Shown here piece after piece: positions 42,118-52,796 of a stretch of DNA of 64,000 nt. The DNA comes from an uncultured bacterium (GTDB taxonomy: Bacteria; Margulisbacteria; WOR-1; CAZGTC01): assembly GCA_964528395.1 (NCBI GenBank), contig CAZGTC010000001.1, forward strand, positions 30,046 to 94,045, given 5' to 3'. The notes beneath the pieces are model-generated. The model did no database searches. It was not told the DNA's origin and worked only from the letters and a program-made list of their open reading frames with translations. Position 1 is the stretch's first letter. Each line of letters starts with the position of its first letter. The translations under genes were made by a program, and so were the position numbers.

Positions 42118-42744
42118 ATGTATATATTAGGCATTAGTACAGCATCGAAATATATTAGCGTAGCGCTGAATGAAGATTTATCCGCTATAGCGGAGTGTTC
42201 TTTGAAAGGCAAAGACCTTGGCAGCGAAGCCCTGGTTTTTTTCATTAAGGATATTTTTTCGCGAGTGAGTTTCGATAAAAAAAACCTGGAAGCGATTTCT
42301 GTTGTGATTGGCCCGGGGTCTTATTCAGGGTTAAGGGGAGCTTTGGCATGCGCCAAGACCTTGGCTCAAGTTTTAAAAATCCCGATTGTTGCAATTTCAG
42401 CGCTTGAAGCCATTGCCTGGCAGTTTGTGGGGCACAAAGCCACAATCATTTCTCTCATGGATGCCAAATCCGACGAATATAATATGGCGGTTTTTACATC
42501 TGACGGGAAAAAGCTTTTCCGCAAGACCGAAGATTTTGTGATAACCGCCAAGCAGATGGAAAAAACGCTGAAAAAAATTAAAGGCGAAGTGATTGTAGCG
42601 GACAAAAATTTTCCCTCGGGCGCAAGCTGCGCAGCTCTGGGTTATTTAAAAATGAAAGAAGGCAAAACCGAAGACCTTTTTAAACTCGTTCCCAAATATT
42701 CCCACACCCCGAATATCCGCAGGTTTGGGGGAAGTTTTTTATGA
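42118..42744 (+). CDS. tsaB: tRNA t6A biosynthesis protein TsaB
   Basis: MYILGISTAS... N-terminus typical of TsaB; start set at ATG 42118 (track start 42097 is TTG). Confidence 0.8.
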   Translation: MYILGISTASKYISVALNEDLSAIAECSLKGKDLGSEALVFFIKDIFSRVSFDKKNLEAISVVIGPGSYSGLRGALACAKTLAQVLKIPIVAISALEAIAWQFVGHKATIISLMDAKSDEYNMAVFTSDGKKLFRKTEDFVITAKQMEKTLKKIKGEVIVADKNFPSGASCAALGYLKMKEGKTEDLFKLVPKYSHTPNIRRFGGSFL

Positions 42745-45700
42745 AGGATTTTCCAGCCGGTTTTTTGCTGCCGTAAAGAGTTTATTACATACATCAGATG
42801 TCTCTTGATTATCAAAAATAGGGGCTTTGTCCCATAGAGAATATAGAAGGGTAATAAAATTTTGTTTATCTTCTGTTGATAATGATGCGATAAAATTAAG
42901 ATGCAGGCTGCTTGCTTTATCCAATACTTCTCTTAAAAAGGGGATGGAAACCGTGTAATCTGGAGAATTATTGTTAATAAGATCGATAAATTTTTTTAAC
43001 TCAAAGAAAAAATCAGATGGGGTGTTGGCAGTTCTTAATGCAGCAAGATATTGTTGTTCTTGAGGGCTAAGATTACTAATCGCAATGTTACTAAATCTTT
43101 TTTTTCCCGCTTGTTTCGCATTTTCAGAAGGAGCTTCTTGTTCAAAATAAGGCTGTCTGGCTTTGTGGCCAGGAACGCGAATAACTGCAACCGTTGTATC
43201 ATCTGCGTCTTTTATTAGTCCAAGTTTGATCAAAGCTTTTACTCTTTCTTCTTCGGTTGTATTTTTTTCGATGGCTTCTTTTATTTCTTCAATTTTGGCC
43301 TTTTCAAAGGGATCAGAAGTTAGAACAAAAAAATCTCCTTTTTTTACTTTTATTTTTATAGTAATAGGGCGAAGAGACAATTGTTTTTCCAAATTTTTTA
43401 CAAGAGTTCGATTTAATTTTGGATCAGCGCAAAGTTGGCGATAGCAAATCGTGCGAGAAGCCCTGTTCGGATACTTAGGATGTGCTTCTCTGCCTTTTTC
43501 GATTATGGCGTTTTGGTAGCGGTTTCCATCTTCTTCGCTGGCAAATGACTTTTGTCTCGTTGTCTTATCAACCAAAAAGTTAGCTAAGTTTTCATAGTGA
43601 GTAAGAATGCGCAACTGTTTTGTTTGGCTGTCATAATAAAAATCCGGGCTATCGCCGATCCAAGTTATTTCCGCCACTGATTCATCTTGATTTACGGTGG
43701 GATAAAGTACAGCTCTAACTAAAGTCGTGCTGCTTCCTTTGTTTGCCGGTTGTTCTTTTGCTATTTTTTTTATGAGGTCAGCAATAAAACTTTTTCCCTC
43801 TTTCCCAATATTTTCTTCTTTAATTGCTTCTTCAAGAACAAATTTGCTTATTGGCAAGCTTTCTTGTGAAGAAGCCCCATCCGTTACTGCAGCAACAATG
43901 GCGCCATATCTTATTTGAGGAGAAAATAATCTCCTTAGTAATCTTTTTGCTGGTGGATAATAAGCTGCTCCAACGCAATCCTTATTCTCTTTTGGTTCCT
44001 GATAATTTTTAGCTAGGCTGCCAATGGCAGCAGAAGCCTCGGGGATCTCTAATATTCCTTGTTCTAATAATTGGCCATTTCTAGAAGAAGGAATTGTTTT
44101 ATCAAGAAATTGCATAGCATCTGCTATGTATTTTTCTCTTTTTTGAACTTTTGACAGAGGAACTTCCCCCAGCCTTAAAAGCACAAGTCCTGAATCGTCT
44201 CCTTTCCTTAAACAAGCGGTTCCAATGGCGCGAAGGGTTTCTGTATCTTCTCTCTCTGTTTGCTCGAGTTCTGCTCTTATGGCAGGAACAGATAAGGCAT
44301 CGAGAGTATCTGATCCAGCTAAGAGGGTTTCTCCGGGTTTCAAATAAATTGTTCTAGTAAAAAAAGGCGCATCTTGAGCAGGAAAAGAGTTTAATAAATA
44401 ATTAAGAAGATATTCTGACGGTGTTTTTCGTCCTGCCTCGTGTAATTGGCTGCTGTTTGTTTCGGATGCATGGGGGTCAAAACCCGGCTGCTTATTTAGA
44501 AAGGTTTGAATATATAGTGATTGCGGGACATTTTCTAAAACTAGCTGTCCATCTTCTCTATGACGAAAAACCGGGCTGTCTCCAACCCAGCTAATTTCAG
44601 TTTCCCATATATTATTTTGTGGGTCAGGAGAAATAACTATGCGGGTAAGAGTCGTGCCTTGATTGGATAAATTAGGTTTTAATGGTTTTTTATTTGCCAT
44701 GGCTAGATTTATTTTTTGCATAGCTTGGCCGCCTGTATAGTGAAGATATTGAGGATCCAAGGCTTCTTGAACTGCGAGATCGCTGTATTCTTCATTATCC
44801 GCAGATGAAATGCCGTCCGCAACAGCGATAATAATACAGCCGCCGGGATAATTTTTATTTTCTCCTTCTTCAATTTTGCGTATGGCAACTACATCTGAAT
44901 TGGTTCTTTGTGCTTTATCGCTTATAGGATGTCCAGCGAGGTTAAATAAAACTGCTCCAGTTGAATGATGAATCCCAAGGCCATTTCTTTGTTTTATTTT
45001 GGCTTCACTTCCATAAAAAGTTTCTATTTCCAGCAAATCCGGCCGCTCGCGAACAGCGGCTAGATTTTTTCTTGCCACATTTTTTCTTATACGAGCAGAT
45101 TCTCCTCTGGTTGTGAGGCGGCGAACAAAGGGGCTCGGCAAACTGTGATAAAGAAGAGAATTTTGGGAAAGCATGCCAAGCTCCGGGTTAAGAATATAAA
45201 TTGCATTATTAATTTCTACTTCTATTACAAAGCGATAAAAATTTTCTCCGGGGCATTGGGCGATTTTTAGAGATGATTGAAAATGGGCTTCTTGCAAGGC
45301 CAGGCAAGCATAGATTTCATTTACTTTTTCTCGGTTAATCAAATTAAGAATTTCCATAAGGATTTGCTCTTCACTTTGCCAAGTTTGCCTTTCCGCTACC
45401 AGAGTTTTTATTTTGGCGCTGATATTTAAAATGTTCTCTTTCTTGAGTTGTATGATAGAAGAAGACAAGCCATTTTCTTCTGGTTCTAAGCTAATAATAT
45501 CGCCTTCTTTTAATATGGAATCCAGATGATCTAATGATGCGTTTATTTCAACAATGTTTTTTTCATGTTCTGGCCCGGAATCAAGATAATTTTCTATGGG
45601 GGTTTTTAATCGGCTGACAGCGGATACAAAAGCTTGAAGTTTTTGTCCTTCAGGGGTAGTTTCTTTGCAAAAAGCTTGTTTTTGGGAAAATAGTTCAGTT

Positions 45701-51518: not shown

Positions 51519-51539
51519 AAAATTGACTCTCGCTTTTTA

Positions 51540-52796
51540 TTATTTCTTTTTGTTTCTTAACCAGCCAATAGCTTCTCTTGAGCTATATATAATTAGAGAT
51601 AGAATTAGAGATGCGGCTATTGTGATAAGAATGTTTTCACCCACGATATCTAAGTAATTGTCAGACCACAGATGTTCTGTTAGTTCTGGAGTCATACTTC
51701 CAGCATCAAAATAACTCAAAACTGATCCAGCAATTCCTCCACCAATTATTCCACCCCCTGCAAATTTCAATGCTGTCCGTATTTTGCTTGATTGTTTTTC
51801 TACACGGTCTTTTACTTTTTTTGTTGGGGGCTTTGCTGGTTTATTAGCTGGAGGAGGAGGGGTTTCTGGTGCTGAAGGAGGAGTTGGTACTGGTGTTGGA
51901 GCAGGAGATGTTGCTGATGCTGGAGAAGGAGTTACTGGTGGGGTTGGTGGCTGTTCTGAAACAGATGATGGTTTTTCTTGAGAGATAGTTTCTCTTCCGG
52001 TTCTTGGTTTTTCTCGATCAGAAATAAGTGTCTTTTTTTGTCCTTCAGTTGTTTGGCGCGATAAATCTGATAAATTTATAGGTTTGCGACCAGGAGCTGA
52101 TTCCGTCTCTGAATCTAACTCCTCAAAAATAAGATCAAGGTCATCTAACCCTTTTATTTCATTGCTAGAAGCAGGGGCAGGTGGGGTATTTATTACTCTT
52201 GGTTTTGGGGTAGACCTTCTTTTTTGTTTTTCAATTAGTATTAAATCTATCCCTCTATCGGTTGGTGCTTCTGGAGGAAGGGGTGGGAGGGAGACTGGGG
52301 GGGTGGGGTCGGCTTTATTAGGGTCTGGGGCGGCGGTTACTTCTGGCATTGAAACCCAAGGAGTTCCAACAGCATGTTGTCCGTTTGCAGTTTTGGAAGG
52401 ATCTAGTCTCTCAACTAATGCTTCTATTTCATTCCCTGTTTCTCCTTTTCCTCTTGGGACACCGGGTAATTTTGGACTAGTAACACCAGGAAGACTGGCT
52501 GGTTGTCCAATTTTTTCATCTTGAGTATCATTAGGTTTTTCAGCCATTTTAACTATTTGTATTTCATTTAAAGTTAAATCTTTTACTAATTTTCTTGTTG
52601 GGATTTCTTGCGAGCCGGTGGCAAGGGCGAAATTTTGATTAGAAATAGACAAGAAAGATTGCACAGCTGTTTTCCAACTGTCTAGCGCAATCCTAACTTG
52701 TGCTTCCCTTCCCTGAAAACACCGAAAGGTTTCGTGTGTTCTTCTCCAATTTGTTGCCGGGACATGATTTGCTATTCTTCCAAAAAAAGATGCCAT
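51540..52796 (-). CDS. proline-rich hypothetical protein with C-terminal hydrophobic anchor (first gene of operon)
   Basis: 418 aa; long low-complexity Pro/Thr/Ser region; C-terminus has two hydrophobic segments; RBS AGGAGG. Confidence 0.5.
   Translation of the reverse strand: MASFFGRIANHVPATNWRRTHETFRCFQGREAQVRIALDSWKTAVQSFLSISNQNFALATGSQEIPTRKLVKDLTLNEIQIVKMAEKPNDTQDEKIGQPASLPGVTSPKLPGVPRGKGETGNEIEALVERLDPSKTANGQHAVGTPWVSMPEVTAAPDPNKADPTPPVSLPPLPPEAPTDRGIDLILIEKQKRRSTPKPRVINTPPAPASSNEIKGLDDLDLIFEELDSETESAPGRKPINLSDLSRQTTEGQKKTLISDREKPRTGRETISQEKPSSVSEQPPTPPVTPSPASATSPAPTPVPTPPSAPETPPPPANKPAKPPTKKVKDRVEKQSSKIRTALKFAGGGIIGGGIAGSVLSYFDAGSMTPELTEHLWSDNYLDIVGENILITIAASLILSLIIYSSREAIGWLRNKKK

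Follow-up and report, generated by a model that had tools for sequence, protein, structure and literature searches.

What is the role of four long, co-directional genes that fill 42739-52796 on the minus strand of a stretch of contig CAZGTC010000001.1 from an uncultured bacterium, and do they form a system at all? The stretch, 64,000 nt long, is referred to here as the window, and all coordinates are given on it. A preliminary description made from the sequence had taken the genes (here g1 to g4) for a translationally coupled operon of giant proteins, possibly an undescribed signalling or effector-like complex. We find that the cassette is a genuine, lineage-restricted and fast-evolving operon in which a known enzyme fold is joined to novel partners, and its only enzyme domain belongs to a known fold. 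Our preferred, tentative reading is that the cassette encodes a cytoplasmic, membrane-tethered PPM-phosphatase complex that is specific to the lineage and has an accessory, conflict-type role. The genes, with g4 divided into its domains, are as follows.

51540..52796, minus strand: g1, 418 residues
48144..51518, minus strand: g2, 1124 residues
46230..48143, minus strand: g3, 637 residues
45004..46233, minus strand: N-domain of g4 (residues 1-410), supported by hhalign, BLAST and an orthologue on a related contig, L009
44074..44973, minus strand: PPM/PP2C-fold module 1 of g4 (residues 421-720), from Pfam, motif alignment, an AlphaFold2 (AF2) model and Foldseek
43114..44073, minus strand: PPM/PP2C-fold module 2 of g4 (residues 721-1040), from similarity to module 1, NCBIfam and motif alignment
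42739..43113, minus strand: C-terminal region of g4 (residues 1041-1164) and stop codon, without detectable relatives

The four consecutive open reading frames (ORFs) have exactly the coordinates and lengths given in the preliminary description (418, 1124, 637 and 1164 residues), although "giant" is a generous term for proteins of this size. The coupling that had been claimed was likewise verified on the sequence. Only 21 nt separate the g1 stop from the g2 ATG, the stop codon of g2 abuts the start of g3 (TAAATG at 48141-48146, with a GAGGAG Shine-Dalgarno sequence within g2), and g3 and g4 overlap in ATGA at 46230-46233. A strong Shine-Dalgarno sequence, AGGAGG, precedes g1, and at the other end of the operon the 3' ends of g4 and the convergent tsaB overlap by 6 nt. 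If each codon on this strand (DNA of 37% GC) is a stop with probability 0.066, the chance of a stop-free frame is 10^-12 for 418 codons and 10^-34 for 1164 codons, so g1-g4 are not chance ORFs. ORFs of 108-362 codons also run antisense to recA/rny and to the cassette genes (27977-29065, 47771-48097, 48460-48834 and 52084-52524, all on the plus strand); these are almost certainly spurious shadow ORFs.

The enzymatic part of the cassette lies in g4, where PP2C-like modules had been suspected and where motifs, profiles and, for the first module, fold comparison point to two of them in tandem. Module 1 carries the motifs NSD, ADGISS, GTTL, GDS, SDT and GDDS, and module 2 carries NKD, TDGASS, TTL, GDS, SDP and DADD. 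The two modules are 24% identical over 254 residues (E 9e-13), and module 1 is 23% identical (E 2e-4) to the canonical PP2C domain of P0009, a protein encoded on a related contig. The NxD, DG, GTTL, GD, SD and D(D/N) motifs align across both modules and the P0009 domain, and the metal-binding Asp residues of NxD, DG, SD and D(D/N) are invariant (4/4) in all three members of this alignment. A profile built from both modules had a sole match in the PDB, PstP of M. tuberculosis, at E 0.16. The AF2 model of module 1 is of low confidence (predicted local distance difference test, pLDDT, 59; predicted template-modelling score, pTM, 0.65). When it was compared with the PDB by Foldseek, as the preliminary description had proposed for models of these proteins, the top 50 matches were all PPM folds (best E 7.7e-9, probability 1.0). 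The phosphatases tPphA, Stp1 and PstP stand at about 8e-9, RsbX, SpoIIE and RssB are also among the matches, and the Legionella effectors Lem3 (E 4e-6) and SidD (E 6e-4) match more weakly than ordinary PP2Cs. In its fold and motifs g4 thus resembles the bacterial PPM/PP2C phosphatases Stp1, PstP and tPphA (PF13672/PF00481), of which P0009 is a bona fide member, but it differs from them in carrying tandem copies within an 1164-residue protein, in flanking domains unlike known families, in a DGxSS motif in place of DGxGG, in family scores below cutoff and in its three orphan operon partners. We conclude that g4 carries PPM folds in tandem, whose sequences have degenerated but which may still be able to bind metal.

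Relatives of the cassette are very few. In databases of about 15 billion proteins, g1, g2 and g4 have no homologue beyond two metagenomic contigs, L008 (12.9 kb, encoding P0009) and L009 (4 kb, encoding P0008). A word-indexed search of 5.8 billion clusters and an exhaustive phmmer comparison with 1.84 billion representatives each returned g4 itself only, and the homologue search with g2 likewise gave only a self-match. For g3 there are two homologues from Logan assemblies, P0008 (645 residues, 52-55% identity) and P0009 (843 residues, 42-45% identity over g3 residues 6-431). The synteny that remained to be checked is conserved: L008 has the order NadA, response regulator, TilS, FolP, FolK, TsaE, TsaB, an MNT/HepT pair and the cassette, and so retains the cassette beside the same tsaB-side genes. 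There the cassette has three genes, which encode a partial g1-like protein, a 790-residue homologue of g2 (22-26% identity, E 1e-18) and P0009, in which a g3-type N-domain is fused to a canonical PP2C with a DGMGG motif (PDB Stp/PstP, E 1e-10; Pfam PP2C_2, E 2.9e-12). The partial g1-like protein shares no detectable sequence similarity with g1 and has the same Pro/Ser-rich arm and C-terminal hydrophobic segments. L009 carries the C-terminus of g2 (35-37%), a g3 orthologue and the N-terminal 450 residues of a protein orthologous to g4 (62-65%), and both contigs keep the coupled junctions (TAAATG or ATGA). The g1-g2 spacer (51519-51539 in the window, 705-734 in L008) contains the shared sequence GCGAG(AG)TCAATTTTATGAC (GCGAG(AG)TCAATTTT before the ATG); its conservation at the nucleotide level between proteins that are almost unalignable suggests a constrained translation-initiation or regulatory element. 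Between cassette and tsaB, L008 has the MNT (NTP_transf_2)/HepT pair (5710-6337, co-directional with the cassette), and none is found there in the window; the tsaB-proximal site therefore gathers variable accessory genes.

The preliminary description had left open whether the genes are conserved among relatives; intact orthologues with the same junctions in L008 and L009, under net purifying selection, speak for conservation. They also bear on the suspicion that the genes are spurious ORFs, decaying pseudogenes or products of mis-assembly, which is encouraged by the lack of homologues in very large databases and by the atypical composition. The sequence occurs identically in an independent assembly in the European Nucleotide Archive (ENA), the orthologues from two other samples keep their starts and coupled junctions, dN/dS is well under 1 and the probability of the stop-free frames is <=10^-12, and we consider this suspicion effectively refuted. 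Wider scans gave nothing closer. DNA-pattern scans of metagenome contigs with one g3 motif and one TsaB motif found no relatives, and a scan of genome contigs with FolP found only matches of 39-45% identity, in metagenome-assembled genomes of Bacteroidota and Alphaproteobacteria. There was no match in a viral-contig scan with the g3-family alignment or in tblastn searches of g3 against plasmids and g2 against phages, and neither an integrase nor direct repeats nor attachment-like sites bound the island; the cassette cannot be recognised as a mobile element or a phage.

The divergence of the cassette is in sharp contrast to that of its surroundings. Between the window and L008, the flanking TilS, FolP, FolK, TsaE and TsaB retain 83-95% protein identity (nonsynonymous divergence, dN, 0.03-0.10; synonymous divergence, dS, 0.46-0.86; their ratio, omega, 0.06-0.15), whereas the cassette proteins share 26-45% identity (dN 0.5-0.9, dS saturated at >1.8, omega ~0.27-0.30). 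Nucleotide homology with L008 (84%) ends at the tsaB stop codon. Measured against its relatives overall, the cassette has a dN/dS of 0.24-0.38, and this net omega below 1 indicates functional constraint. Identity drops toward the 5' end of the operon: with L009 it falls from the g4 N-domain through g3 to the g2 C-terminus, and with L008 from the g3 N-domain through g2 to g1, where it is undetectable. The GC content of third codon positions (GC3) is 0.22-0.28 in g1-g4 and 0.29 in two adjacent genes, for a 224-residue protein and a Fic protein, against 0.44 +/- 0.06 in 29 housekeeping genes of the window. In its behaviour, 42739-54554 is an accessory island, AT-rich and hyper-divergent, whose content is retained but is diverging, or being swapped for distant alleles, far faster than the surrounding chromosome. 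The higher dS may reflect allelic lineages of greater age, as far as saturation allows such a statement.

A different account of this divergence is that the cassette serves core physiology (envelope, polarity or RsbU/SpoIIE-like regulation) as an ordinary Ser/Thr-phosphatase module, specific to the lineage and used for signalling or as a scaffold, and that helical and disordered scaffolds are simply under weak constraint. Its retention in all three related contigs (3/3) under overall purifying selection fits such a role, as does the presence of RsbX, SpoIIE and RssB among the fold matches. Bacterial PP2Cs with large N-terminal regulatory domains (RsbU, RsbP, SpoIIE) are common, and g4 likewise has a large non-catalytic N-domain, putatively for partner docking, ahead of its PP2C modules. 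Yet dN is 5-15x that of the flanks, folded domains included, GC3 lies about 3 standard deviations under that of housekeeping genes, and the architecture varies among close relatives (three versus four genes, a fusion, a PP2C duplication). Fic and toxin-antitoxin genes are neighbours, and the window scans reveal no STAS, anti-sigma-kinase, Hanks kinase or FHA partner nearby. Compared with the RsbU/RsbP/SpoIIE partner-switching systems, moreover, the g4 N-domain is unrelated in sequence and the cassette is accessory and hyper-divergent. We regard a core-physiology module as unlikely, though a serious contender.

The partners of g4 are largely without precedent. g1 consists of a short N-terminal region, a Pro/Ser/Thr-rich low-complexity arm (residues ~95-340) that is presumably disordered, and a C-terminal hydrophobic hairpin; no family match was found for it in Pfam, NCBIfam, PADLOC, PHROGs or the PDB. 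Its Pro-rich tracts lie at residues 148-186 and 271-333, and two of its features can be placed on the DNA.

51847..51947, minus strand: imperfect 24/48-nt tandem repeat encoding the densest Pro-rich stretch of g1
51579..51764, minus strand: C-terminal hairpin of g1 (residues 345-406), oriented by the positive-inside rule

The hairpin is made up of a Gly-rich hydrophobic segment (345-367) and a strongly hydrophobic one (388-406) with an acidic 20-residue loop between them. Nine Lys/Arg residues flank it before and five after, and because both flanks are basic the positive-inside rule predicts an N-in/C-in topology with the first ~340 residues in the cytoplasm. The membrane tail anchor proposed earlier for g1 is supported in its two C-terminal hydrophobic segments and refined to this predicted hairpin. 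The complex would therefore sit at the cytoplasmic face of the membrane, and such a predicted N-in topology is more in keeping with a module for signalling or conflict than with an effector that is secreted. None of the four proteins has a hydrophobic h-region in its first 45 residues (best 10-residue Kyte-Doolittle mean <=0.67, a heuristic rather than a trained predictor), in agreement with the earlier statement that Sec signal peptides are lacking.

g2 has a conserved N-domain (~1-590), a region (~591-808) missing from the L008 protein and a conserved C-terminal domain of ~110 residues (1010-1124), with Pro-rich linkers at 809-889 and 990-1026; it has no Pfam, NCBIfam, PADLOC, PHROG or PDB family, and its only relatives are those on L008 and L009. 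g3 has a conserved N-domain (residues 1-430, window 46854-48143), a Pro-rich linker at 519-545 and a C-terminal region that looks helical, and it has no match in Pfam, NCBIfam, PADLOC or PHROGs. The Pro-rich strings quoted in the preliminary description were located in g1 (271-333) and in these linkers of g2 and g3. Its view that no domain could be assigned outside the PP2C modules holds for g1 and g2, which have no family, and has to be amended for g3, to which two proteins are homologous, P0008 and the PP2C fusion P0009.

g3 and g4 probably have paralogous N-domains. These align by hhalign over 263 columns (E 2.3e-4; E 1e-3 in the all-versus-all run), and at their very N-termini a collinear BLAST alignment pairs AAQKLNEIFS in g3 with AAQKLINIFS in g4 (motif AAQKL.(N/E)IFS). 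All-versus-all BLAST among the cassette domains gave nothing significant, and all-versus-all hhalign among the defined domains supported this pair only. A repeated module of "Pro-linker + ~100-residue helical end domain" in g2, g3 and g4, also considered, is unsupported by the same hhalign run. Taken together, the g3-g4 similarity and the fusion in L008 suggest a single ancestral N-domain-PP2C gene that was duplicated in the window lineage, where g3 would have lost the phosphatase and g4 would have doubled it and let it drift. Sequence and profile searches of the PDB with g2, g3 and the g4 N-domain gave chance-level matches only. A model of the g3 N-domain (pLDDT 57.6) offers a weak lead to transglutaminase/papain-like folds (LapG-type BTLCP, TgpA and arylamine N-acetyltransferases were compared), with non-significant Foldseek E-values; neither Pfam nor the PDB gave a sequence signal for the g3 or g4 N-domain, and the Cys-His-Asp triad is unconserved in the family alignments. 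The g3 N-domain could at best be a catalytically dead, remote relative of these enzymes.

Orphan proteins, rapid evolution and an AT-rich island are also what would be expected of a secreted or translocated effector set directed at a eukaryotic host or bacterial prey, in which the Pro tracts would mimic SH3, WW or profilin ligands and the PPM modules would act on host proteins as Lem3 and SidD do. PxxP-rich tracts are indeed present, and the twin hydrophobic segments of g1 are loosely reminiscent of chlamydial Inc proteins. Lem3 and SidD, effectors with a PPM fold (PMC10115812, PMC3656104), are likewise matched by the model of module 1, but ordinary PP2Cs of bacteria, not effectors, match it best. 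No secretion signals are recognisable in g1-g4, no secretion-system genes lie in the window besides an isolated secretin near 62 kb, and methionine, folate, NAD and trehalose biosynthesis together with resistance-nodulation-division (RND) efflux point to a free-living and metabolically complete diderm. Tight coupling to a membrane-anchored N-in partner would, furthermore, better suit an intracellular complex. An effector set is in our view an unlikely explanation, albeit one that deserves consideration.

We return to the membrane-tethered phosphatase complex, for which the following arrangement is proposed. The C-terminal N-in/C-in hairpin of g1 would be inserted in the inner membrane, and its Pro-rich flexible arm of ~250 residues would reach into the cytoplasm. 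g2 would serve as a large scaffold with two conserved end domains and Pro-rich linkers between them, and g3 and g4 would act as adaptors through their common, paralogous N-terminal docking domain. The tandem PPM modules of g4, the sole enzymatic activity of the complex, would strip a phosphate-type modification from target proteins. In the close relative represented by L008, the same function would be accomplished by three genes, with the g3-type N-domain fused to PP2C. The complex would be used in conflict or stress (interaction with phage, competitor or host) and not in core physiology, a role suggested by the AT-rich, hyper-divergent island, the variable gene architecture and the adjoining Fic or MNT/HepT genes.

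Several observations weigh against this proposal. The family scores of the PPM modules are low: module 1 matches Pfam PP2C_2 below threshold (E 0.004, 17.1 bits, cutoff 24), and module 2 matches NCBIfam Stp1_PP2C with 36.6 bits against a cutoff of 230 (E 3.4e-9, best stretch 944-1017). Where DGxGG is expected, g4 has DGxSS (DGISSAD in module 1 and DGASSQE in module 2, compared with DGMGGAE in P0009), the general-acid His that follows DGxGG is absent from both modules, and both structure models are of low confidence (pLDDT 58-59). No Ser/Thr kinase, FHA, STAS or anti-sigma kinase domain was found in Pfam scans of the window ORFs of at least 150 residues, and no effector-type toxic domain was found in g1-g4, for which PADLOC gave no meaningful match (PADLOC-DB v2: zero matches for g1-g3, a chance-level MTase_I match at E 0.014 for g4). 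Complex formation, topology and the catalytic competence of g4 are what we infer, and so is the conflict role, for which only context and evolutionary rate speak. Because flanks are available in one comparator only (L008) and dS is saturated, allele replacement by recombination is inseparable from accelerated evolution.

The nearest neighbours on the 5' side of the operon raise a further possibility.

53085..54554, plus strand: unit encoding a 224-residue family-less protein and a class-II Fic protein, divergent from the operon and in the same AT-rich island

The unit is treated as context and is not shown to be part of the system. Its Fic gene (53775-54554) has an intact active site, HPFIDGNGRSAR, an N-terminal STTIEG inhibitory motif and a PADLOC match to SoFic (4e-26). 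It lies 980 bp upstream of g1, and the divergent transcription units share a region of 288 bp. A resemblance of the 224-residue protein to AbiEi, noticed by eye, was dropped as it had no Pfam support. In Legionella, adjacent writer and eraser genes are known in the pairs AnkX (Fic)/Lem3 and SidM/SidD, whose erasers have a PPM fold (PMC10115812, PMC3656104); all de-AMPylase and dephosphocholinase effectors known so far have this fold (same sources). Here too a PPM-fold gene stands beside a gene for a Fic domain, and such an adjoining modifier gene is present in one genome. It is conceivable that the degenerate PPM modules of g4 reverse AMPylation or phosphocholination by the divergent Fic protein, with the other operon proteins targeting or regulating them. 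The intact class-II active site, the shared control region, the common low-GC3 island and the fold that g4 shares with the known erasers are all consistent with this, and the atypical DGxSS may suggest a non-canonical substrate. The adjacency is, however, seen in one genome only, as L008 stops short of that position; the fully canonical PP2C of L008 argues for ordinary phospho-Ser/Thr chemistry, the similarity of the fold to Lem3 and SidD is below that to standard PP2Cs, and the Fic protein resembles a self-contained, auto-inhibited SoFic-type unit. In contrast to the Legionella pairs, the window shows no sign of secretion or host association, and the Fic protein is small, class-II and SoFic-like rather than AnkX-like. 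We consider an antagonist of Fic very unlikely.

A broader proposal is that the cassette represents a new type of conflict system, in which a Pro-rich membrane scaffold (g1 and g2) and adaptors (g3 and g4) would position PPM modules that erase phosphorylation or Fic-type AMPylation/phosphocholination and would diversify in an arms race; this we judge decidedly unlikely. Among the phage-defence candidates of PADLOC, component C of PDC-M21 is matched weakly by the fusion PP2C of L008 (E 3.7e-5, over ~60 residues of generic PP2C sequence). The cassette also lies among defence and toxin-antitoxin-like genes, but the other PDC-M21 components are absent and g1-g4 have no meaningful PADLOC match.

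Two candidate control sites precede g1, each identified by consensus match only.

52930..52959, minus strand: best sigma-70-like promoter candidate, TTGCCA-18-TATAAT (11/12 matches), ~135 nt upstream of the g1 ATG
52899..52919, no strand assigned: imperfect palindrome rich in GC (minus-strand reading CCTGCCTTGCCGGCAGGCAGG) within the presumed 5' untranslated region of g1

Promoter-like sites are just as numerous in this region as expected from shuffled sequence. The palindrome is a possible operator or RNA hairpin. On the plus strand, a near-consensus promoter (TTGACT-16-TATAAT with a TG extension) is found at 53007-53034, and a 24-nt direct repeat of 2.4 copies (consensus ATAAACTATCCAAAATATTTACGA, 53030-53086) lies between this promoter and the start of the 224-residue protein; the repeat is a possible operator of the divergent control region.

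To the left of the cassette lie tRNA-modification and folate genes. The window also has genes for RecA, CinA, RNase Y and YmdB, for RND efflux together with an outer-membrane efflux protein (OEP), for a hybrid-cluster protein, for MetX, MetW and NadA, for the synthesis of trehalose and for a secretin. The host looks like a metabolically complete diderm, as judged from RND efflux, OEP and the secretin, and probably an anaerobe, as judged from the hybrid-cluster protein. The trehalose cluster (55766-61362) comprises OtsA (GT20), OtsB (trehalose phosphatase), DUF5752, a TreT-type trehalose synthase and a PMT-family glycosyltransferase, and the isolated short secretin, at 61999-63198, has an STN domain. 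At 36645-38465 two opposite-strand tRNA-Met(CAT) genes bracket NadA and a small response-regulator gene, the latter identified by its nucleotide match to the annotated L008 gene; the arrangement is kept in L008. Further low-GC patches (0.32-0.35) at 14000-18000 and 32000-36000 hold accessory-type genes, namely an AAA_14/DUF4143 ATPase, an MNT-like nucleotidyltransferase, a 428-residue protein with a weak HEPN_Cthe2314 match and several family-less ORFs.

Should the cassette be no more than a scaffolded phosphatase specific to its lineage, it adds one more item to metagenomic "dark matter", and its general interest is modest. If the preferred reading is true, a common signalling enzyme, PP2C, has been drawn into a rapidly evolving accessory module whose partner proteins are wholly novel, and a writer-eraser pair of Fic and PPM proteins may exist outside Legionella. 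g2 and the N-domains of g3 and g4 are candidates for new folds. Flanks of 83-95% identity around a cassette of 26-45% indicate an unusual evolutionary pressure on cytoplasmic proteins, in a pattern that is typical of surface antigens, effectors and defence systems.

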